Below, one piece after another: positions 1,540 to 11,293 of a DNA stretch of 11,293 nucleotides. Each line of letters opens with the position of its first letter. Positions within the stretch are counted from its first letter, which is position 1. Location of the stretch: the IMG/VR virus record IMGVR_UViG_2703718818_000011; one strand, given 5' to 3'. The translations under genes and the position numbers were made by a program. This DNA is from a virus. Taxonomy: Duplodnaviria > Heunggongvirae > Uroviricota > Caudoviricetes. The notes below the pieces were generated by a model. That model was not told the origin of the DNA. It saw nothing but the letters and a program-made list of their open reading frames with translations, and made no database searches.

Positions 1540-2480
1540 CACAACACCTTTAGTTGTAAGGCTTGCGTCTTCCATCGCAACTGCACCGGCAATCTCTTCA
1601 GCACGATCAGCAGCAGCTTCCGCACGGGTCGCAGCGGATTCAGCAGTAGTTTTGCTCTGAGATGCCGCCGTCGCACTGCCAGCTGCCTCTGTCGCCTTCG
1701 TGGATGCTGTCGTGGCGCTGCCTTTCGCTGCTGATGCCTGTCTGCTCGCCTCATCTTTTGAAGCAGACGCAGATGATGCCGATGACGCCGCCGAACTGGC
1801 GGACGATGCAGCTGCCATTTTTGAGGATTCTGCACTGGTTTCCGAGGCTTTCGCGTTCGTTTCGGATGTCTTCGCTGCGGATGCAGACCTCGCTGCTGCG
1901 CTGGCCTGTTCAGCGGCTTCGCCAGCCTTCGTTGTGGCTGTTGAAGCAGACGATGCGGCGCTTTCTGCCGATTTTCCGGCGGCGGTGGCACTGGCTGAGG
2001 CCTGCCCGGCACTTGTTGACGCGGCACTGGCAGACGACGCAGCCGCTGTTTTTGAGCCTGCCGCAGCCGAGGCGCTCTGTCCCGCTGCCGTTTCAGAAGA
2101 CCTGGCGTTTGTCTCAGACGTCTTTGCCGCCTTCGCGGAATTGCCTGCCGCCGTTGCCGAGGAAGCGGCACTACTGGCGCTTGATGATGCGTTCGTTTCT
2201 GATGATTTCGCTGCCTCTTTTGAGGCCGCCGCATCCCGGGCTGAGGTGGCTGCTTCTGACGCCTTCGTGGTCGCGGCGGATGCAGAAGTGGCTGCTGATT
2301 GTTGTGACGCTGCCGCATTCGTTTCTGACGTTTTCGCCGCACCGGCACTGGTAGCTGCCGCGCTTTTTGAGGACTCTGCAGCAGCAGCACTTTTTGCTGC
2401 TTCACGGGCCTTTGTCGATGCCGTTCCTGCGCTGGAAGACGCTGACTGAGCCGACGACGCGGCCTGTCCGGCTGACGTGC
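1540..2480 (-). repeat. Low-complexity Ala/Ser/Thr-rich repeat region of the tail fibre shaft, with a 9-aa motif AAK(T/S)SETNA recurring four times
   Basis: The 26-nt units gcgttcgtttcggatgtcttcgctgc (~1853), gcgtttgtctcagacgtctttgccgc (~2105), gcgttcgtttctgatgatttcgctgc (~2189) and gcattcgtttctgacgttttcgccgc (~2315) are all reverse complements of AAK(T/S)SETNA codons. This strong compositional bias produces long spurious ORFs in several frames. Confidence 0.6.
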
Positions 2481-3372
2481 TGGCGGCACGTGCTGAGCCT
2501 GCAGCATCGGTTATTACCACTTCCCGGATCGCTATACGCTATTCCGTTAAAGATAATGGGCGGAATAATGATTTGACGGTCAAAGTTATGATCATCGCTG
2601 ATGGTGACTGTAACCGTCCCGTTTGGTGTTTCCGTATTACCCCACGTACCAGCCTGTTTCGGGAATGATTTGGATACAGCTTTAACGAAGTCACCTCTGA
2701 CCTGAGTCGCCTCCAGCATGCCCTTAATCGTACAGTTTTCATTTACCGTGACATTGTTGAGCGTCCCGGCGTTCGCATTCACACTGCCACTGATATCCGC
2801 ATTTTTAGCGGTCAGCTTTCCGTCCGGTGTCAGGGAAAATGCCGGTGGATTTCCACCGCTGGTAATGGTGGGGGCCGTCAGGCGTTTCAGGAACACGTCG
2901 TTCATGAATATCTGATCGCCCTGACCAACAAACATCGGTTTTGTGTTGCCATTCGCAGGATTAACCATCGCAATCCTGTCCGCCGCCAGCAGCACCTGAC
3001 TCTGCATGCCGTCAGGGGTGTTCTCAATATCCACGATGGCCTCTTTTTCCGGTACATGCTGCACGGCGGTGATGGCATACGTGCCGTCGTCGTTCTCACG
3101 GATACTCACGCAGCGGAACAGGCGCTGGCGCAACGTCGGCAGCTTCAGCCCCCATACGCTGTATTCAGCAACGCCGTCAGGAACACGGCTCACTTTCACC
3201 TTCACGCCGTCGGTGACGGACTGAACCTCCACGCTGACCGGACTCCCCTGCCCGTCAACCAGGCTTATCAGCGTGGTGCCGGAAGATGGCAGCGTGATTT
3301 CACGGTCGAGCGTCAGCGTCCGGGTCTGGCTGTTTACCGCCAGCACGCGCCCGCCGGTGCGGATACCCAAGC
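2402..3372 (-). pseudogene. J: Internal/C-proximal fragment of host-specificity (central tail fibre) protein J, with no native start and reading out of frame into stf
   Basis: The ORF translation [113 protein letters not shown] ... [63 protein letters not shown] is near-identical to two blocks of the second half of lambda J as remembered. The 'start' at 3370 is a TTG inside the J frame; the ORF ends ...[15 protein letters not shown]...KGP in the wrong frame of the stf Ala-rich region. Confidence 0.8.
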
Positions 3373-3588
3373 TGGAGTGGCGAACGTTTTACCCTTGCTG
3401 ATGAGGTATTCACTGATTTCGCTGTACCACATGTGGCTGAGTGCATTCTGGGAAAGACTGCGTCTCTCGCGCCACGGTTTAAGCACCATGCGAAAGCATT
3501 TGCCGTCCTCCAGATAAGGCTGGATCTGCCGACCGATAGCGGTGAAGTTACCGCGATGCAATTTGATACCATCTTGTGGGAGGTTCAC
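3363..3588 (-). pseudogene. ninB: N-terminal fragment (~75 codons) of a NinB/YbcN-family protein, truncated at a deletion junction with J'
   Basis: Translation [75 protein letters not shown] carries the RSL-x-QN motif remembered from lambda NinB (..ERNRSLDQNRKLWACLGDVS..). The start is GTG at 3588. After ..TPAWV the frame reads a few junk codons (SAPAGACWR) and stops, while J homology begins in another frame at the same position. Confidence 0.5.
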
Positions 3589-3782
3589 GCTTCACCTCCG
3601 CAGAGATCAAACGCTGGATGCAAAATATCGCAGGTGCATTTCTGCATCTGTGAATGGAGAAGAGAGGTTGGATTGTATGTGCGCATAAACGTCCCCGTTT
3701 AGCGCAGAAGTCACCGGAGTTGTTCAGGCCCCAATGGCATGATTATGGCTGGTTGATTATTGGAAATCAAATGTGCTGAAAA

Positions 3783-4292
3783 TTAGTCTGCCAAGTCTTC
3801 CTCAGTCGCAACTGGGTAATTCCAAATATCAAAAAAAGCTATAGCCTCCTGCCATTTGCTCCATAAGTTATCAAGTACTTGTGTAGGTTCCGTACTTTTA
3901 AAAACAGAATCAGCCGCATCACCGTTATGAACTTCCTCGTACAGTTCCATTATTAGCAGATTAACAAAGTACTGTTTCAACATTAATGCCTGATTACCTT
4001 CTTTCTGCTGGCTATCCTGCTTGATGATCTCCATCGCCCGTACTAGGCACCTGATGATATCCGCTGCATCATTAACGCTCCATTCAGATCCGCGCTTATC
4101 TTTAGCTGATGAATTGGCTCTCTCAGCGCAAGCCTTTAAAGACTCATAAAGGTAAACTCTATTTTGTAGCTGCAGCGCTTTTTTTGACGTGTACCAACTT
4201 GCAAGCGCCGACCCCGCTGCGGCTAATGTGCCAAACGCAGAAATACCTGCTGCTATTGCACTTAAGTCGGCACTGTCAAAGTTCCACATCAT
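3783..4292 (-). CDS. Hypothetical protein, 169 aa, with a predicted single N-terminal transmembrane helix followed by a soluble, charged, helical-looking domain; function unknown
   Basis: Complete ORF with ATG start and an AAGGTG Shine-Dalgarno about 7 nt upstream. Residues ~10-33 (LSAIAAGISAFGTLAAAGSALASWY) are hydrophobic. The gene is AT-rich relative to the phage backbone, has its own upstream region after a terminator, and does not match any protein I recognise. Confidence 0.55.
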   Translation of the reverse strand: MMWNFDSADLSAIAAGISAFGTLAAAGSALASWYTSKKALQLQNRVYLYESLKACAERANSSAKDKRGSEWSVNDAADIIRCLVRAMEIIKQDSQQKEGNQALMLKQYFVNLLIMELYEEVHNGDAADSVFKSTEPTQVLDNLWSKWQEAIAFFDIWNYPVATEEDLAD

Positions 4293-4321
4293 CGTTACAC
4301 CTTATATAAATACCCCTCAGT

Positions 4322-4350
4322 AATATCCAATAAGGTATGTGCACAATCAA
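4322..4350 (-). promoter_or_regulatory. Candidate sigma70-type promoter for the 169-aa gene (minus-strand -35 TTGATT, 17-nt spacer, -10 GATATT)
   Basis: Minus-strand sequence reads TTGATTgtgcacataccttattgGATATTactgaggggtatttatatAAGGTGtaacgATG. Hexamer match only; not validated. Confidence 0.25.
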
Positions 4351-4468
4351 TATAATTTTATCCGTATCGGCACATAGCGATTTGAACGCTACTGGTAATG
4401 GTATATTTTAGATTATATCGTCCAGTTTACAGCACCCGTATTTTATGAAATGGACTCGCATATTACCC

Positions 4469-4507
4469 AAAAAATGCCAGCACTTCCGTCATCGTAGAAT
4501 GCTGGCA
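4469..4507 (-). terminator. Rho-independent terminator on the minus strand downstream of the 99-aa ORF (end of the ybcK-side transcript)
   Basis: Inverted repeat tgccagca (4475-4482) / tgctggca (4500-4507) with a 17-nt loop, followed on the minus strand by a run of six T (plus-strand A-run 4469-4474). Confidence 0.5.
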
Positions 4508-4550
4508 GTATTTCTAACTAGTGACTTTATTGGAACAGATTCTGACGGAA

Positions 4551-4850
4551 TTATGGTAACACTCGACTCCACTTATCATCCAGCCACGGCTGGAATTTTA
4601 CATGTGCCGTTTCTCTGGCGAGGATTGCTCGCGCTCTGTTGAGTATCTGGGGATATTCTTGCTCGATAGAAGTAAAGCGGCCGGCTTCGCGGTGCTCCGC
4701 AACCTGAAGTAGTGGAGTAACGTTCTGGCAGGCAGTTAACATCACATCACCTGCTCGCCATAACCAAGCACGTGCACAAAGTTTGTTATCAGTGAATTGT
4801 TTTGTGATTGGGTATTGTTGAACTGCTAGAACGAGAACGCCAGCATCCAT
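4551..4850 (-). CDS. Hypothetical protein, 99 aa, unknown function; possibly co-transcribed with ybcK
   Basis: Complete ATG-initiated ORF 111 bp downstream of ybcK on the same strand, followed by the terminator at 4469-4507. GC content is closer to the host/phage backbone than to ybcK. No recognisable motif and only a weak ribosome-binding site, so it may be a gene fragment. Confidence 0.4.
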   Translation of the reverse strand: MDAGVLVLAVQQYPITKQFTDNKLCARAWLWRAGDVMLTACQNVTPLLQVAEHREAGRFTSIEQEYPQILNRARAILARETAHVKFQPWLDDKWSRVLP

Positions 4851-4961
4851 TGGCAGTCCCTATAGTAAAACCATAGCTCAGGACGCTTCGTTCAGGATAG
4901 ATAATTTTATTGTACTTACCTAACTTTCTTACTATAGCACGGTTGAAAAAGTGATTATTAC

Positions 4962-6488
4962 TCAAAAATAAACCTCACCATCAACCATATATTTGAGAGT
5001 ACTTATCGCCTGCTGGGCGGATATTGTTTTCATTAAAGGATAGTGTTTAAAAACAATGCCATTCATAAAATAGATATCACAGGTTTTATTATCTGTATTG
5101 ATTATGATTTTTTCGAATGTTTTATAGGCAAGTGTACGACATAGCTCTCGCCCATTTTTACTGGTTAAGTCAATAGCATGAAAATCACCAAGTGAACTCA
5201 CCGCTTTACTCTTCAAAGTTTTTAATGATACAGAAGCCCTTCGTAATTCCTTATCTAATACTCTGATTTTTTCTGCTATAGCGGTAACTTCAGGCGCAAC
5301 AGATAATGCAGCAATTAAATTATTAATTTTCATCTGGAGCTCAATAATTTTCAACTCTAAAGTTTCATTAGCATCTTTCTTGTTTTCAACTGGTTGGATT
5401 TTACTACAATTAAAAAGCAACTCATTAATGATATTATAATCAACCAAATCTCTCTTTATTGATGGCCTGTCACATCGATGCAGTCTTCTCATCGGACAAA
5501 CATAATAGCCATGCAAACTTCCAGATACCGCATGAACAATCATGGTATTACCACAAGCCTCGCACTTCATAACTGTTCGAAGTAGATTTATCAACATAGG
5601 ATTTTTGCTACTATTGCTAATACCAAAAGGTGCCAACCGAATTTCCTGCACAGCGTAAAACAAATCATCTGATATGACTCTGGGATAATAGCCAGCGATT
5701 TCACTTATTCCTTTACCTCTTGCACGATATGAAGGTACGCATATACCTATCAGAGCTTTATTCGCTAATAATTTTTCAATTACAGAAGGTCCCCATGCAC
5801 TTTCTTTTCCTGAGAAATTCTTTACAGCATGATCATTTAAATACTTGGCTATTGCATTCAATGAGCGCCTTTCCATCCTGAGTTTAAAAATTAGCTCAAT
5901 AGTTTTCACCCTGTCGGGGTCTGGAACAAAAGCCGTTCTTTTGTCATCCAATGAGAGCCATCTCGGACAAGACGCCGTCATAATCGTGCCTGACTCCAGT
6001 GCATCCTGCCGTTTTTTCTTCCATGATAATTTAACCCGACTTGACTTTATCTCGCTTTCTTCATTTGCCCTTTGTGCTATAAGTATGGCTTTTATTAATG
6101 AATATGGCTCATTCAATGAGTCAATATTATAGACTGTATTATCGCAAAGAGTTATAACATCAATACCGTGATTCAAAATCAATTTCAGACGCTCAATCGC
6201 CTCACCGACTTTTTCTCTTGAAAGTCTGTCCAGACTTTCAACTAACAATGTAGTCCCTGGCAATATATAACCATGTTCTATAGCATCTAAAAATTCCGAA
6301 AAAGCTCCTGATTGTGCATGCTTTCCATTGAATGCGCTTAACCCCAAATCTTCATACGTTACGGTATCAAGGTAATAATCACTATTTACCTTTAGCCATT
6401 CAGTAATAAGCCTTCTCTGGCGGTTTAATGAATCACCAGACATCTGACTTGGTGATGAAAATCGCATATATGCTATGGCTTTTTTCAT
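4962..6488 (-). CDS. ybcK: Large serine recombinase (resolvase/invertase-type catalytic domain, recombinase domain, Cys-rich zinc-ribbon-like segment), YbcK-like
   Basis: 508-aa ORF. The N-terminus AIAYMRFSSPSQ carries the serine-recombinase catalytic serine motif, with ..LVESLDRLSR.. following. A Cys cluster (CEACGNTMIVH...YYVCPMRRLHRCD) lies in the C-terminal half. Length and position next to emrE match K-12 DLP12 YbcK as remembered. The gene is strongly AT-rich, with an AT-rich 255-bp upstream region. Confidence 0.85.
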   Translation of the reverse strand: MKKAIAYMRFSSPSQMSGDSLNRQRRLITEWLKVNSDYYLDTVTYEDLGLSAFNGKHAQSGAFSEFLDAIEHGYILPGTTLLVESLDRLSREKVGEAIERLKLILNHGIDVITLCDNTVYNIDSLNEPYSLIKAILIAQRANEESEIKSSRVKLSWKKKRQDALESGTIMTASCPRWLSLDDKRTAFVPDPDRVKTIELIFKLRMERRSLNAIAKYLNDHAVKNFSGKESAWGPSVIEKLLANKALIGICVPSYRARGKGISEIAGYYPRVISDDLFYAVQEIRLAPFGISNSSKNPMLINLLRTVMKCEACGNTMIVHAVSGSLHGYYVCPMRRLHRCDRPSIKRDLVDYNIINELLFNCSKIQPVENKKDANETLELKIIELQMKINNLIAALSVAPEVTAIAEKIRVLDKELRRASVSLKTLKSKAVSSLGDFHAIDLTSKNGRELCRTLAYKTFEKIIINTDNKTCDIYFMNGIVFKHYPLMKTISAQQAISTLKYMVDGEVYF

Positions 6489-6743
6489 GGTGACACCTGC
6501 TAAAGTATGCTTTTATAAACCTTAGTGGTGAGATATGATTTTTGTTTAATTTTTATTTAAAAAGACAATTAAGGTCACATTATCTTGAATATACAACAAT
6601 AATCGTATTGCAATTTTCTTACACCATAATCTTGAAAGCACAAAAGAATGAATAAAAACTAAAGACATTAACAAAAAGCATAAAACGAGGCCCATATAAA
6701 TATACGAGCCTCCATATTTTAGTCGTTTAAAAACAAATTATTT

Positions 6744-7076
6744 TTAATGTGGTGTGCTTCGTGACAATAAATTAATAACCAACACACCGGCACAAATCAA
6801 CATCATGCCTATAATGGCTGGCAGGTCCAACCGTTGGCCGAAAAATCCCCATGATAGTAAGCTAATCAGGACAATACCGACTCCTGACCAGATAGCATAA
6901 GCAATCCCTGTAGGAATATAAGCCAGCGTCTGAGCTAATAACCAGAATGATGCACAATAACAAATAATTGTACCAACAGATGGCCATAACCGTGTAAAAC
7001 CTTCTGAAAACTTCATTAAGGTTGTACCAATGACCTCTGCAAGTATTGCACCACCAAGATAAATATAAGGATTCAT
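6744..7076 (-). CDS. emrE: Small multidrug resistance (SMR) family efflux transporter EmrE, 110 aa
   Basis: Translation MNPYIYLGGAILAEVIGTTLMKFSEGFTRLWPSVGTIICYCASFWLLAQTLAYIPTGIAYAIWSGVGIVLISLLSWGFFGQRLDLPAIIGMMLICAGVLVINLLSRSTPH matches E. coli EmrE essentially residue for residue as remembered. The true start is the ATG at 7076 with an AGGAAAG ribosome-binding site; the 128-aa track ORF starts at an upstream in-frame ATG. Confidence 0.95.
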   Translation of the reverse strand: MNPYIYLGGAILAEVIGTTLMKFSEGFTRLWPSVGTIICYCASFWLLAQTLAYIPTGIAYAIWSGVGIVLISLLSWGFFGQRLDLPAIIGMMLICAGVLVINLLSRSTPH

Positions 7077-7091
7077 AGCATATTCTTTCCT

Positions 7092-7126
7092 GTTCAAACT
7101 GGAGAGAATTGTACTACAGTTTGAAC
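7092..7126. promoter_or_regulatory. Perfect 10-bp inverted repeat (gttcaaactg / cagtttgaac, 15-nt spacer) between ren and emrE, directly upstream of the emrE ribosome-binding site
   Basis: Positions 7092-7101 and 7117-7126 are exact reverse complements. No T-run follows on the minus strand, so it is more likely an operator, RNA structure or module-boundary hairpin than a canonical terminator. Confidence 0.5.
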
Positions 7127-7143
7127 TCAACTCACCTGTTTCA

Positions 7144-7446
7144 TCATTGTGTACCCATTGATGTTCTTTTATATACCCTCAATACCCGTTTCATCGCGGC
7201 ACTCTGGCGACACTCCTTAAAAATCAAATTCGTGCTCACCTTTCCTTCCCATTCTTCTCTGGTAGCGAACCGATAATACACCGTTCGCCAGACCTTACCA
7301 TCAACGACTAGGATTCCTGCCCGCGCCATTTTAGCCGCAGCCTGATTTATGCTGGTTACCGTTGCGCCTGTTACCGCGGCAACGTCCTGCGCACAGAATT
7401 TCTTATGAGTCCCCAGGTAATGAATAATTGACTCTTTGCCCGTCAT
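7144..7446 (-). CDS. ren: Ren-like protein (lambda ren homologue), 100 aa
   Basis: Translation MTGKESIIHYLGTHKKFCAQDVAAVTGATVTSINQAAAKMARAGILVVDGKVWRTVYYRFATREEWEGKVSTNLIFKECRQSAAMKRVL... is very similar to lambda Ren as remembered. Its ATG overlaps the stop of P (ATGA), as in lambda. Confidence 0.85.
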   Translation of the reverse strand: MTGKESIIHYLGTHKKFCAQDVAAVTGATVTSINQAAAKMARAGILVVDGKVWRTVYYRFATREEWEGKVSTNLIFKECRQSAAMKRVLRVYKRTSMGTQ

Positions 7447-8144
7447 ACCCTTGCTCCTTTCAGCCCAAACTTAGCTTTGATTTCTGCGATCTTCGCCAGA
7501 GCCTGTGCACGATTTAGAGGTCTACCGCCCATGACAGGAAGTTGTTTTACTGGTTCAGGTATAGCCTCACCACGGTTAATTCGTGCGGTCATACAGGACA
7601 GTTCATCGGCAGCCTTGCGCCGTAATTCCGCGTCAGTCAACGCATTGGCCCGCATGTTCTGATACAGGTTGGTAACCAGCCAGTAGTGCGCGTTTGATTT
7701 CCACGGATAAGACTCTGCATCCGGATACAGCCCGCGCTTCCGGCAATACTCGTAAACCATATCAACCAGCTCGCTGGCGTTTGGCAGCCCGGCGGTAACG
7801 GATGCTTCTTCCCGGCACCAGGCGACAAACTGCCCGGGTGATGGCAGGAATGGTCGATTCTGCCGACGGGCTACGCGCATTCCAGCGTTAACCTGTTCCA
7901 TTGTGGTGATCCCGTTTTCCCGAAAAGCCAGCACCCACTGGCGGCGGATTTCGTTCAGTTCATTCTGGTCACGGTTAGCCAGGCTCGCCGGGAAAGTTGC
8001 CAGTAACTGGCTGAACACACCGTTGATGATCTGCGCTACCTGCTGTACCTGTGGCTTTTCGTCGTACTGTTCCGGCATGTTGTTGGCGATCCGACGCATC
8101 TGCTCACGGTCAAAGTTAACCATCTGTGCGGCGATGTTTTTCAT
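7443..8144 (-). CDS. P: Lambda-type replication protein P (DnaB helicase loader), full length, 233 aa
   Basis: Translation MKNIAAQMVNFDREQMRRIANNMPEQYDEKPQVQQVAQIINGVFSQLLATFPASLANRDQNELNEIRRQWVLAFRENGITTMEQVNAGMRVARRQNRPFLPSPGQFVAWCREEASVTAGLP... is near-identical to lambda P as remembered, with the same length. Confidence 0.9.
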   Translation of the reverse strand: MKNIAAQMVNFDREQMRRIANNMPEQYDEKPQVQQVAQIINGVFSQLLATFPASLANRDQNELNEIRRQWVLAFRENGITTMEQVNAGMRVARRQNRPFLPSPGQFVAWCREEASVTAGLPNASELVDMVYEYCRKRGLYPDAESYPWKSNAHYWLVTNLYQNMRANALTDAELRRKAADELSCMTARINRGEAIPEPVKQLPVMGGRPLNRAQALAKIAEIKAKFGLKGARV

Positions 8145-8395
8145 AGATCCACCCCGTAAATCCAGTCAGTGTTTGTCAGGTCGAGTTTTGGTTTGCCGAC
8201 TGTCACGCCAGCCTGTTGCTTGTTCCGGTTGATTTCGAGCTGGGTCCACTTGTCGCGGAGTTTGGCCGGACTCAGCACGTTACCGGACCAGAAGTTGTCC
8301 TGGCAGGCCCAGCGGAACAGTACACACATGTCGCGGTGGTTACGTCCATCACGTTCACGCATCAGACGGATATCGTTAGGCGCGATCACTTTCGT
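8141..8395 (-). pseudogene. O: C-terminal fragment (~83 codons) of replication initiator O; the N-terminal origin-binding part and the ori iterons are absent
   Basis: Translation ...IAPNDIRLMRERDGRNHRDMCVLFRWACQDNFWSGNVLSPAKLRDKWTQLEINRNKQQAGVTVGKPKLDLTNTDWIYGVDL matches the P-interacting C-terminus of lambda O as remembered, overlapping the P start. The frame is closed by an in-frame TAG just upstream (~8396-8398). Confidence 0.65.
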
Positions 8396-8503
8396 CTACT
8401 CCATTACAAAGCGAGGCTGGGTATTTCCCGGCCTTTCTGTTATCAGAAATCCACTGAAAGCACAGCGGCTGGCTGAGAAGATAAATAACAAACAGGAGGA
8501 TAT

Positions 8504-9568
8504 ATGAGTCAGGTTGGTAATCATTCATTCGAATTTCCGGCATCGCAAGGTGTACAGGGTGGTACTGTTACACTCTTCCTTACCATACCAGGAAGATCGC
8601 TGGCTCGTTTCCTCGCTTCAGATAATTACGGCCATACACTGGAACGCTCTCAGCGAGAAATTAATCCAAATCGAGTACGAAAATTTTTAAATTATCTCAC
8701 TAACGCAGACTCAAGAAATGAGCCTTTTATCATTCCCCCTCTCGTAGGTAACTGTGATTCGAATATAGAATTTGTACCGTTTGGCAACACAAATGTTGGT
8801 ATAGCCAGAATTCCCCTCGACGCCGAAATAAAACTTTTTGATGGTCAACATCGTGCAGCTGGCATTGAGATATTTTGCCGAAGTTCCCCATCAACGCTCA
8901 TGGTTCCCATGATGCTTACAATGAATCTGCCGCTAAAAACCCGGCAGCAGTTCTTTTCGGACATAAATAACAACGTTTCTAAGCCATCAGCGACCATCAA
9001 TATGGCGTATAACGGCCGGGATGATATTGCTCAGGGAATGATATCCTTCCTGACCCAACATACTGTATTTGCCGATATAACCGATTTTGAACACAACGTA
9101 GTGCCATTAAAAAGTAATATGTGGGTGAGTTTCAAGGCACTCACTGATGCAACGTCAAAGTTCGCTAGGAACGGCAATCAACAACTTGAAATGGGATATA
9201 TAGAATCTGTCTGGGAGGCATGGATTACACTAACTCAGATTGACTCAATCCGACATGGTGTACACCACGCTACGTACAAGCGCGATTATATTCAGTTCCA
9301 TGGAGTAATGATTAACGCTTTCGGTTTTGCGGTTCAACAGATGATGGTTAATCATTCCATCGCAGAAATAACTTCTATGATCGAAAAACTATGTGCAACT
9401 ACCAGCTCTGCAGAAAGAGAGGATTTTTTTCTGATGGATAACTGGGCGGGGATCTGCACGAAAGCCAGCCAGGAAAAACTATCTGTTATTGCCAATGTGG
9501 CAGCGCAGAAAGCAGCAGCAAACAGACTGATACAAGCTTTTACCAAAGGAAGTCTGGAAACAACTTAA
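8504..9568 (+). CDS. DGQHR-motif protein (DndB-like family), 354 aa; orphan, with no dnd/dpd partner genes in the window
   Basis: Complete ORF with a strong Shine-Dalgarno (AGGAGG at 8494-8499) and ATG at 8504. The protein contains the diagnostic motif ..EIKLFDGQHRAAGIE.. at about residues 108-121, and its size is in the DndB range. It is AT-rich relative to the flanking P/O' and xis/int, and is followed by a hairpin plus T-run. Confidence 0.75.
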   Translation: MSQVGNHSFEFPASQGVQGGTVTLFLTIPGRSLARFLASDNYGHTLERSQREINPNRVRKFLNYLTNADSRNEPFIIPPLVGNCDSNIEFVPFGNTNVGIARIPLDAEIKLFDGQHRAAGIEIFCRSSPSTLMVPMMLTMNLPLKTRQQFFSDINNNVSKPSATINMAYNGRDDIAQGMISFLTQHTVFADITDFEHNVVPLKSNMWVSFKALTDATSKFARNGNQQLEMGYIESVWEAWITLTQIDSIRHGVHHATYKRDYIQFHGVMINAFGFAVQQMMVNHSIAEITSMIEKLCATTSSAEREDFFLMDNWAGICTKASQEKLSVIANVAAQKAAANRLIQAFTKGSLETT

Positions 9569-9645
9569 TGAATCAACATTGTCTCATATCAGCATGCTGT
9601 ACGGCGTCTTTAAGGAACGGTGAGCATGAAAAACAAAATCATCAT

Positions 9646-9669
9646 GGAGCTACAGGCTCCTTTTTTATT
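9646..9669 (+). terminator. Candidate rho-independent terminator downstream of the DGQHR gene
   Basis: ggagc (9646-9650) / gctcc (9656-9660) stem with a 5-nt loop, followed by TTTTTTATT (9661-9669). The stem is only 5 bp, so this is a weak terminator. Confidence 0.4.
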
Positions 9670-9782
9670 ATTAATCGGACTTGTGCAAGTTGCCAGGAGG
9701 AGATCGAACTTAAGAACAAACAATGGGGACTGTGATGGCTTCAAAGCAGCAAATTTCAACATCGTCCAACTGAGGTGTAAAA

Positions 9783-10022
9783 ATGTTCAGAATCATTTTT
9801 CCTAACACCTGGTACGTCGACCACCACGGCACTCCCTGCAAAATCCTGCGTTCTACCCACAACAAAGTTCACTACATCCGAAAAGGCAGAACATGTATCG
9901 CCAGCATGTTCCGCTTTAATCATGACTTTGAACCTGTGAATAAAGCTGATGCAGATCGAATAGCAGAAGAGATCGAAACGGCAGAACACATTAAGAAGTT
10001 ACGTGCCATACGCAGGAAATAG
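9783..10022 (+). CDS. Hypothetical small protein, 79 aa, between the DGQHR gene and xis
   Basis: ATG-initiated ORF with a GAGG about 7 nt upstream, on the same strand as xis/int. Small proteins are common directly upstream of xis in lambdoid prophages, but I recognise no motif. Confidence 0.35.
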   Translation: MFRIIFPNTWYVDHHGTPCKILRSTHNKVHYIRKGRTCIASMFRFNHDFEPVNKADADRIAEEIETAEHIKKLRAIRRK

Positions 10023-10161
10023 AAAAATTGATAAATTCAATACTGCATTACTCAGCATTAAATTTATCTCTATGACCAGTCAAGAGATGTACCTGCCATG
10101 AGCTTAATATCATGTCAGATATATCGGTCACAAACTCCCTCAGCAGCTAAGAGGAGGACAA

Positions 10162-10398
10162 ATGTCTCGACTAATCACTTTACAGGACTGGGCTAAAGAA
10201 GAATTTGGGGACTTAGCACCAAGTGAGCGAGTTCTGAAAAAATACGCGCAAGGGAAAATGATGGCCCCACCCGCTATAAAAGTTGGTCGCTACTGGATGA
10301 TTGACCGAAATTCCCGTTTTGTAGGAACGCTTGCAGAACCGCAACTCCCAATAAACGCAAACCCAAAACTCCAACGGATAATCGCTGATGGCTGCTAG
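10162..10398 (+). CDS. xis: Excisionase (lambda Xis-like), 78 aa
   Basis: The N-terminus MSRLITLQDWAKEE... and ...APPAIKVGRYWM.. parallel lambda Xis (MYLTLQEWNA... / ..FPPPVKDGREYL..) as remembered. It has a strong ribosome-binding site (AAGAGGAGG) and overlaps the int start by 11 nt, as in lambda. Confidence 0.7.
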   Translation: MSRLITLQDWAKEEFGDLAPSERVLKKYAQGKMMAPPAIKVGRYWMIDRNSRFVGTLAEPQLPINANPKLQRIIADGC

Positions 10399-11293
10399 AC
10401 CCCGATCTCACAAAATCTCTATACCCAATTTATATTGCAAATTAGATAAGCGAACCGGAAAGGTATATTGGCAATACAAACATCCACTATCCGGTCGTTT
10501 TCATAGCTTAGGAACTGATGAGAATGAAGCAAAACAAGTTGCTACTGAAGCAAATACCATTATTGCTGAACAACGTACCAGACAAATATTAAGCGTCAAT
10601 GAGCGTCTGGAAAGAATGAAAGGCAGGCGCTCAGACATTACGGTGACAGAATGGCTTGATAAATATATTTCTATCCAGGAGGACAGGCTGCAACATAATG
10701 AACTAAGACCCAACTCCTATCGGCAAAAAGGCAAACCCATTCGTCTTTTCCGTGAGCATTGTGGAATGCAACACCTCAAGGATATTACCGCACTTGATAT
10801 TGCCGAAATAATTGATGCTGTAAAGGCTGAAGGTCATAACAGGATGGCGCAAGTCGTGAGAATGGTGTTGATCGACGTCTTCAAAGAAGCACAACACGCA
10901 GGACATGTTCCGCCAGGATTTAACCCTGCGCAGGCAACAAAACAACCGCGAAATCGAGTAAACCGCCAAAGATTGTCACTGCTCGAATGGCAGGCAATAT
11001 TTGAAAGCGTAAGCAGACGGCAGCCCTATTTAAAATGCGGCATGCTACTTGCTCTTGTTACTGGACAACGTTTAGGCGATATCTGCAATTTGAAATTCTC
11101 TGATATATGGGACGACATGTTGCACATTACTCAGGAAAAAACCGGTTCAAAACTTGCTATTCCGCTTAACCTGAAATGCGATGCTCTGAATATTACCCTT
11201 CGTGAAGTTATATCTCAGTGCAGGGATGCTGTTGTTAGTAAATATCTGGTCCATTACCGTCACACTACCTCTCAAGCAAACAGAGGAGACTAG
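10388..11293 (+). CDS. int: Lambda-family tyrosine integrase, N-terminal ~300 aa; the frame ends at TAG 11291-11293, before the expected HxxR / H / Y catalytic residues, so it is probably a pseudogene
   Basis: Translation MAARPRSHKISIPNLYCKLDKRTGKVYW... and ...LALVTGQRLGDICNLKFSDI...QEKTGSKLAIPL... aligns by eye to lambda Int (MGRRRSHERRDLPPNLYIRNNGYY..., ..LAVVTGQRVGDLCEMKWSDI..., ..QSKTGVKIAIP..). Lambda Int continues about 55 aa further with FHELRSL...LGHKS...ASQY; here the frame ends ..ANRGD then TAG at the last base of the window. Confidence 0.8.
   Translation: MAARPRSHKISIPNLYCKLDKRTGKVYWQYKHPLSGRFHSLGTDENEAKQVATEANTIIAEQRTRQILSVNERLERMKGRRSDITVTEWLDKYISIQEDRLQHNELRPNSYRQKGKPIRLFREHCGMQHLKDITALDIAEIIDAVKAEGHNRMAQVVRMVLIDVFKEAQHAGHVPPGFNPAQATKQPRNRVNRQRLSLLEWQAIFESVSRRQPYLKCGMLLALVTGQRLGDICNLKFSDIWDDMLHITQEKTGSKLAIPLNLKCDALNITLREVISQCRDAVVSKYLVHYRHTTSQANRGD

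Follow-up and report, generated by a model that had tools for sequence, protein, structure and literature searches.

Among described elements, the closest to the locus analyzed here is the DLP12 prophage of E. coli K-12 (intD-xisD'-exoD'/peaD'-renD::IS3-emrE-ylcJ-ybcK). In DLP12, as in the window (the whole 11,293-nt stretch of DNA that was analyzed), an int/xis/exo arm stands head-to-head with the remains of a replication operon, and the recombination-immunity-origin centre is gone. The block P'-ren-emrE-ylcJ-ybcK shows 94–96% nucleotide identity between the two. The attachment sites are different, with DLP12 located at argU and the remnant of the window at icd, and the int and xis genes differ as well. 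The joint of DLP12 is independent and lies inside exo and P, so that P codons ~131–233 (103 codons) and no O are kept, whereas the window retains an intact P together with 78 codons of O. In the K-12 annotation, there is no DGQHR gene between xisD and exoD. A paper on the replication remnant of DLP12 was not found in a literature search.

In phage lambda, the replication origin (ori-lambda) is located at positions 39034–39160 inside the O gene and comprises four 18-bp iterons and an AT-rich stretch (PMC3349717). The window is collinear with lambda over O'(222–299)-P-ren, the stop/start overlaps included (window 7171–8379 = lambda 40555–39347; unbroken blastn match with 93.9% nucleotide identity). 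Compared to lambda, it is without O residues 1–221, the four iterons, the AT-rich region and the pR-cro-cII-oop segment. The right side of the joint belongs to the exo-xis region of the lambdoid phages, which is known within the pL operon as a variable stretch that is not essential (PMC4195576, PMC8614690, PMC6213356). In lambda this region comprises orf60a, orf61, orf63, orf73 and ea22. In the window a DndB-like gene takes the place of orf61-orf63, and orf60a and orf73 are shortened.

The engineered trapped fragment of strain Y836 (cIII-cI857-O-P-ren), which has served for work on replicative killing and P-lethality, resembles the remnant in the window in being non-excisable and in carrying P and ren. 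The Y836 constructs retain cI, pR, an intact O and ori, whereas none of these is present in the window. Survivors of Y836-type derepression were found to bear lesions in O, P or ori (PMC3640518, PMC4926192).

The O-derived stretch of the window is an O pseudogene resulting from ordinary prophage decay of a known kind, and it is already annotated as such in identical genomes and in RefSeq. The feature is very probably a deletion scar, left by two successive deletions in a cryptic lambdoid prophage that occupies the icd site of E. coli. The features of the region are listed in Table 1.

Table 1. Features of the prophage remnant, with positions and strands as in the window.
Feature	Position	Strand	Description
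emrE	6744..7076	-	Pfam Multi_Drug_Res 3e-35; annotated in identical genomes
ren	7144..7446	-	100 aa; PHROG phrog_142 'Ren-like exclusion protein' 2e-41
P, helicase loader	7443..8144	-	233 aa, full length; Pfam PF06992 Phage_lambda_P 8e-62
O' stub	8141..8379	-	Lambda O codons 222-299, stop and 2 nt of codon 221; C-terminal part of the initiator
Deletion joint O'/orf60a'	8378..8379	.	Alignment of window, NCTC9100 and lambda
orf60a/DUF1317 remnant	8379..8507	+	Codons 11-52 and stop, 129 nt; first 10 codons lost
Joint-derived 5' end of the 82-codon ORF	8380..8389	-	Antisense orf60a, read directly
DGQHR/DndB-like gene	8504..9568	+	Pfam DndB 4e-46; PADLOC DndB 4e-37; PHROG phrog_7901 7e-216
Second small deletion joint	9672..9675	.	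207 bp of orf73/TraR-like region lost, AA filler
DUF4222 gene	9783..10022	+	Pfam match
xis	10162..10398	+	Pfam match
int	10388 to window end	+	Pfam match

The blastn match to lambda ends at window position 8379, which is lambda position 39347. The breakpoint is located here, and the second base of O codon 221 is therefore the first that is homologous. Between O' and lambda O, 12 mismatches were counted in 239 nt (95% nucleotide identity). All 78 of the 78 codons could be aligned, with two amino-acid changes. The stub corresponds to positions 237–317 of the 318 positions of the PHROG family phrog_277 ('replication initiation O-like'). Its best PHROG match is phrog_2357, a 124-position family of unknown function, which probably collects similar stubs. 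The reduction of O to a C-terminal tail, proposed in the first-pass annotation, is confirmed by these results. The C-terminal region of O reportedly contacts P, as put forward in the classical literature (by Furth and co-workers and by Wickner and Zahn).

In the ORF list of the window, the stub is part of an 82-codon ORF (8389..8141, - strand), of which 78 codons are true O. The first four codons (GTG ATC GCG CC-) are non-O sequence, and the same bases are orf60a codons in strain NCTC9100. The in-frame TAG that had been placed near 8396 was read directly at 8396–8398 on the - strand. A GGAG motif is located 9 nt upstream of the GTG. The 5' end of the O' reading differs in the intermediate, NCTC9100-type form of the locus.

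Since its GTG start is supplied by antisense orf60a, the 82-aa ORF is no gene but a fusion by-product that the joint created; the GTG and the three codons after it owe their presence to the second of the two deletions alone. In every identical genome, PGAP labels this stretch 'replication protein, incomplete, missing N-terminus'. The occurrence of the 78-aa region in phages was examined in a sample of 40 records across 336 matches, of which 38 are annotated. In 38 of these 38 records, the gene that covers the region is O-like, a replication initiator or hypothetical, and P comes next after it in the close relatives among the sampled records. The suggestion that the ORF might be a natural small gene was not supported: neither an own conserved start or upstream region nor an independent recurrence was found in 5426 complete genomes and the 40 phage records, and the joint itself occurs in one of the 5426 genomes.

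At the joint, the window reads ...GATATCGTTA/GGCGCGATCAC..., where TA (possibly TAG) can be assigned to either side. The adjoining orf60a remnant shows 92% nucleotide identity to lambda orf60a and matches positions 11–50 of the 54 positions of PHROG phrog_1998 (7e-23). An intact orf60a of 52 codons is annotated in NCTC9100. The stop codon of orf60a overlaps the start codon of the DGQHR gene in an ATGA at 8504–8507. According to the first-pass annotation, the N-terminal part of O and the iterons had been replaced by the upstream region of the DGQHR gene. Their loss is in agreement with our results, while the replacing sequence was found to be the 3' part of orf60a (129 nt) and not a mere upstream region.

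The joint is a deletion scar that links the leftward (pL) to the rightward (pR) operon. O' and the right-hand genes are divergent because all the DNA formerly between them has been lost. Their orientation is that of lambda: int, xis and the early-left genes point to icd, and O', P and ren point in the opposite direction.

The N-terminal part of O could not be detected in the window. With lambda O as query, tblastn detected only the C-terminal end (true homology from residue 222); for residues 1–195, no match was obtained anywhere in the 11.3-kb window in any frame, and the O-family Pfam domain had no match among the ORFs tested. The lambda iteron gave 0 matches in the window with up to 3 mismatches allowed, and the direct-repeat search of the window revealed no family with more than two copies within 120 bp. 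The homology to lambda starts 187 bp downstream of ori-lambda. With the origin at 39034–39160 and the homology start at 39347, the origin is located wholly inside the deleted part.

The region comprising pR, cro, cII and oop has no homology in the window either; O'-P-ren and some patches of the exo-xis region account for all matches to lambda. At gathering thresholds, no Rfam match for oop or other phage RNAs was found in the window. Using a crude consensus scan, no sigma-70-like site was identified in 8390–8503 on either strand. In addition, another initiator was found neither in the window nor among the genes annotated for the remaining part of the element in the identical genome.

Of a functional lambda-type replication module, the locus contains the C-terminal region of O and a full-length P. 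The N-terminal O domain, the origin and upstream transcription from pR are not present. The element is incapable of lambda-type replication initiation, as stated in the first-pass annotation, because both the O N-terminus and the iterons are absent from the window. Since pR, cro, cII and the N-terminal part of O are gone and no sigma-70-like site was seen, P is left without an evident promoter. The O'-P-ren string is inert for replication and presumably promoterless and transcriptionally silent, and the O' remnant most likely does nothing.

P and ren had been described as full length, and this could be confirmed. Along its whole length (residues 1–233), P shares 97.9% identity with its lambda counterpart. 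The ren product is slightly longer than that of lambda (100 aa compared to 96 aa), with 87% identity over 92 aa, and is annotated as 'phage exclusion protein Ren' in the identical genomes. The start of P overlaps the stop of O', and the start of ren overlaps the stop of P; both are 4-bp overlaps typical of lambda. Downstream of ren, emrE and, further left, ylcJ and ybcK form a DLP12-like block. For emrE, the nucleotide identity to DLP12 of K-12 is 95.8%.

On the other side of the joint, the DGQHR cassette was found to extend from ~8507 to ~9587 of the window (~1.08 kb) in place of lambda orf61-orf63. Its left edge at ~8507 and the O' joint are thus 128 bp apart. The following stretches 9588–9672 and 9675–9712 match the flanks of lambda orf73. 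In the window itself, both orf60a and orf73 are truncated. The gene order is exo'-orf60a-DGQHR-TraR/DksA(orf73)-DUF4222-xis-int in NCTC9100 and gam-bet-exo-orf60a-DGQHR-... in NCTC9087, a less decayed form that has a full exo and no O' at all. In these two strains, the genes follow the order of an exo-xis region: orf60a is located downstream of exo and orf73 before xis, on the strand of int.

Homologues of the DGQHR gene (62–65% at the amino-acid level) are found beside a DUF1317 gene in Salmonella phages (SPN1S group) and Klebsiella phages. Of the Dnd partners, no dndA/C/D/E gene could be identified in the window or in the annotated remnant. The DGQHR gene encodes a solitary DndB-like protein and is ordinary phage cargo of the left arm, i.e., a resident exo-xis cassette. 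The region 9783..11293 represents the attL-proximal end of the prophage beside icd.

Positions 7100–10450 of the window are 99.9–100% identical to 17 complete E. coli chromosomes. In the identical genomes, int directly adjoins icd, and an icd' fragment is located at the other end, ~17.7 kb away. The rest of the element in an identical genome consists only of tail-fibre genes, McrBC-like genes and the duplicated icd fragment. In the annotation of the identical NCTC9100 remnant, repressor/cro, N, lysis genes, head genes and Q are not listed. O, NinB, Ant and J persist in the remnant as stubs. On both criteria tested, the element is a cryptic (defective) lambdoid prophage at E. coli icd.

Over positions 3100–9672, the window shows 100% identity to NCTC9100 and 99.98% to RM10410, apart from unshared stretches. 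NCTC9100 has a different joint, ...GATATCGTTA/CCGGGATCGAC..., the right side of which is exo from codon 10. Using a 101-bp probe and full matches, this O'/exo' joint was identified in 23 of 5426 complete genomes, one of which has since lost P from codon 34 onwards. The O'/orf60a' joint of the window type was found in a single one of the 5426 genomes, RM10410. As RM10410 does not share a third, 207-bp deletion of the window, the source genome of the window is not part of this complete-genome set. Compared to NCTC9100, the window is without 677 bp (L002 5280–5956), and the flanks of this segment are 100% identical over 5.3 and 1.3 kb. In MFDS1001074, a sister remnant, most of P has been lost and O' has been kept.

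From these comparisons, the following history can be proposed. The ancestor would have had the usual lambda layout, int-xis-(orf73, DGQHR, orf60a)-exo-bet-gam-...-N-cI-cro-cII-O(ori)-P-ren-.... No genome with a fully intact ancestor (int/DGQHR arm, immunity region and O-P arm) was retrieved, and the ancestral layout is therefore reconstructed rather than observed. A first illegitimate deletion at a TA microhomology very probably brought exo codon 10 next to O codon 221. It would have taken bet, gam, kil, cIII, N, cI, cro, cII, pL, pR, the 220 N-terminal codons of O and ori, where the content of the lost gam-to-O region is taken from the lambda map, no relative that retains this region having been seen. 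A second deletion of 677 bp, again at a TA microhomology, would then have taken out exo' along with the initial 10 codons of orf60a, giving the joint of the window. The sequential order of the two deletions is the simplest reading. Left of the joint, a promoterless and origin-less O'-P-ren string would remain.

Derepressed O-P with ori kills the host by in-situ replication, and P alone is toxic via sequestration of DnaB (PMC3640518, PMC4926192). The loss of cI alone would probably have been lethal due to P toxicity and replicative killing, whereas the host would be expected to survive a deletion that takes the repressor, pR and ori at once, as here. This toxicity is a possible reason why such a deletion survives.

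The second deletion starts 0–2 bp from the first joint. For two independent random events, such a shared start is an unlikely coincidence. In addition, part of the arrangement could have originated from inter-prophage recombination, beyond in-situ decay, since P-ren-emrE is nearly identical to DLP12, which is located at a different attachment site.

Several candidate mechanisms were considered, and none accounts for the shared O end. An IS-mediated adjacent deletion was rejected, since the only IS3 in a close relative, that of Z1323HEC0011, is located between DUF4222 and xis, far off the joint, and the IS3 of K-12 lies inside ren. The 30-nt flanks of the second deletion share ACGCATC, but 5.8% of random position pairs score at least as high, and a homeologous patch guiding the deletion is not supported. 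In the repeat list, no repeat ends at both endpoints of the second deletion. CCGGG repeats are present at the ends of the deleted segment; by eye, neither recombination nor cut-and-rejoin between them gives the observed joint.

The first-pass annotation had taken the junction as the left boundary of a DGQHR insertion, so that a segment bearing the DGQHR gene would have entered the 5' part of O or taken its place. The G+C content falls from ~54% over O'-P to ~42% near 8400–8500, and the DGQHR gene, which replaces orf61-orf63, is without a lambda counterpart. The low G+C content, however, runs on from the DGQHR gene through xis and int. As it spans the whole left arm, the step in composition reflects two phage arms and not an insert. 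Moreover, 129 nt of lambda-homologous orf60a lie between the joint and the DGQHR gene, whose own edge is at ~8507, and this O' end abuts exo in 23 genomes, where a complete orf60a and a complete DGQHR gene lie downstream. NCTC9087 has gam-bet-exo-orf60a-DGQHR without any O', and the phage homologues of the DGQHR gene also lie beside DUF1317. The DGQHR gene was thus identified as a resident gene of a phage operon, and an insertion with its boundary at the O' joint is extremely improbable.

Alternatively, a recombination hotspot in O might have given rise to the two joints separately, each starting from an intact ancestor. Both use the O end ...GATATCGTTA to within 1–2 bp and both have a TA microhomology; an O end shared in this way is hard to ascribe to chance under the sequential model, too. 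An independent origin is the only way in which the shared O end would not be coincidental. The two forms, however, show 100% identity along >6.5 kb on both sides, and the form found in 1 genome is nested within the one found in 23 genomes. Neither an intact ancestor nor a third joint at the same position of O was seen, and the joint of DLP12 is located elsewhere, in P. A hotspot is therefore considered very unlikely, and this nesting, together with the identical flanks, speaks for two sequential deletions.

Another explanation is that O' and/or P have been kept because they interfere with superinfecting lambda-type phages by titration of P or O or by sequestration of DnaB, with Ren and EmrE co-selected. 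P and ren are intact, P is nearly the same protein as in lambda (97.9% identity), a GGAG precedes the GTG of the ORF by 9 nt, and the retained part of O is, according to the classical literature, the region that contacts P. Furthermore, co-expressed O moderates the toxicity of P, and replication fragments of lambda are able to exclude phages of the rep-lambda type (PMC3640518, PMC3349717). The published exclusion, however, requires oop and iterons 3–4 (PMC3349717), both of which are deleted here, and no promoter-like site was found upstream in the crude scan. MFDS1001074 has lost most of P, and in DLP12 there is no O, half of P is gone and ren carries an IS3. This pattern of loss in the sister remnant and in DLP12 indicates random decay and not conservation. 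All carriers of the joint are ~100% identical, so that there is no evolutionary depth from which selection could be inferred. Retention for interference is thus highly improbable. That O' and P (and Ren) act as a domesticated interference module, expressed by low-level read-through and giving a repressor-free exclusion, is hardly credible. In such a module, O' could bind the P of incoming lambda-type phages, or the resident P could upset their loading of helicase; if it were true, the O end shared by the two joints might reflect selection for precisely this stub and not chance.

A deletion scar left by two successive events remains the preferred reading, and its importance lies in little more than an accurate annotation. 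'O pseudogene' is the proper label for the stretch, which is found where a deletion joint interrupts a DLP12-like cryptic prophage integrated at icd. The DGQHR gene is best regarded as phage cargo of the exo-xis region and not as an independent insertion; the true context of this solitary DndB-like gene is the pL operon, where it is flanked by orf60a and orf73 and its start overlaps the orf60a stop in the ATGA. The locus also illustrates how lambdoid remnants may settle harmlessly, with the repressor, the early promoters and the origin lost in one stroke and the potentially toxic P surviving intact and presumably silent.

A further, smaller deletion was identified in the orf73 homologue by blastn against NCTC9100 and RM10410. 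The loss of 207 bp removes the 5' part of this gene in the window and is absent from RM10410.

The second deletion, of 677 bp, which produced the O'|orf60a' joint, starts at a distance of 0-2 bp from the earlier O'|exo' joint (window 8378/8379 versus 5279/5280 and 5956/5957 in L002, the relative from NCTC9100 that carries O'|exo'). The dinucleotide TA is the sole microhomology at either joint. The similarity between the flanks of the 677-bp deletion ends is ordinary, since a score this high was obtained for 5.8% of random position pairs.

The O' stub (8141-8389, minus strand) was matched best in PHROG by phrog_2357, a family of 124 positions with unknown function, which scored slightly higher than the full-length O family. 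Short ORFs consisting of the O C-terminus alone would thus be present in phage collections, and those of phrog_2357 are probably other stubs.

Next to the truncated orf60a, whose stop is overlapped by the start of the following gene, lies a solitary DndB-like DGQHR gene (8504-9568; Pfam 4e-46, PADLOC DndB 4e-37), for which no dnd partners were found. The DGQHR cassette (approximately 8507-9587) stands in place of lambda orf61-orf63 in the exo-xis region. Homologues with 62-65% amino acid identity were found in phages of the Salmonella SPN1S group and of Klebsiella, where a DUF1317 gene adjoins as well. Directly downstream of the DGQHR gene, at 9646-9660 and just before a further lesion, lies a hairpin that resembles a terminator and has a T-run. 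At this lesion (9672-9675), the loss of 207 bp, with AA as a 2-nt filler, has taken away the 5' part of the homologue of orf73 (TraR/DksA-like), which is whole in NCTC9100 and RM10410.

Three more phage-gene stubs were identified in the window (see table), which indicates that the entire element is a deletion patchwork. An ORF of 169 aa, located with the NinB stub on one side and the Ant stub on the other, was matched end to end by a PHROG family, and no match was found for it in Pfam or PADLOC.

Additional stubs and ORF of the element in the window
Feature	Position	Strand	Match
Tail-tip J fragment	2402-3370		
NinB N-terminal half, 84 aa	3334-3588		phrog_72 positions 7-82 of 161
169-aa ORF	3783-4292	-	phrog_1779 (unknown function), 1e-102
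Ant/P22AR C-terminal fragment, 99 aa	4551-4850		

The P-ren-emrE-ylcJ-ybcK block (window 4923-7754) is 94-96% identical to that of the E. coli K-12 prophage DLP12 (L007 2877-6970), whereas the attachment sites, argU for DLP12 and icd for the window remnant, and the integrases differ. The block is thus a cargo that either travels in lambdoid prophages of differing attachment site or has been swapped among them.

In NCTC9100, genes for McrC and for an AAA ATPase (L009 3084-6157) are carried at the opposite (attR) end of the remnant, outside the window. Together these represent an McrBC-like restriction system, adjoined by a duplicated icd' fragment.
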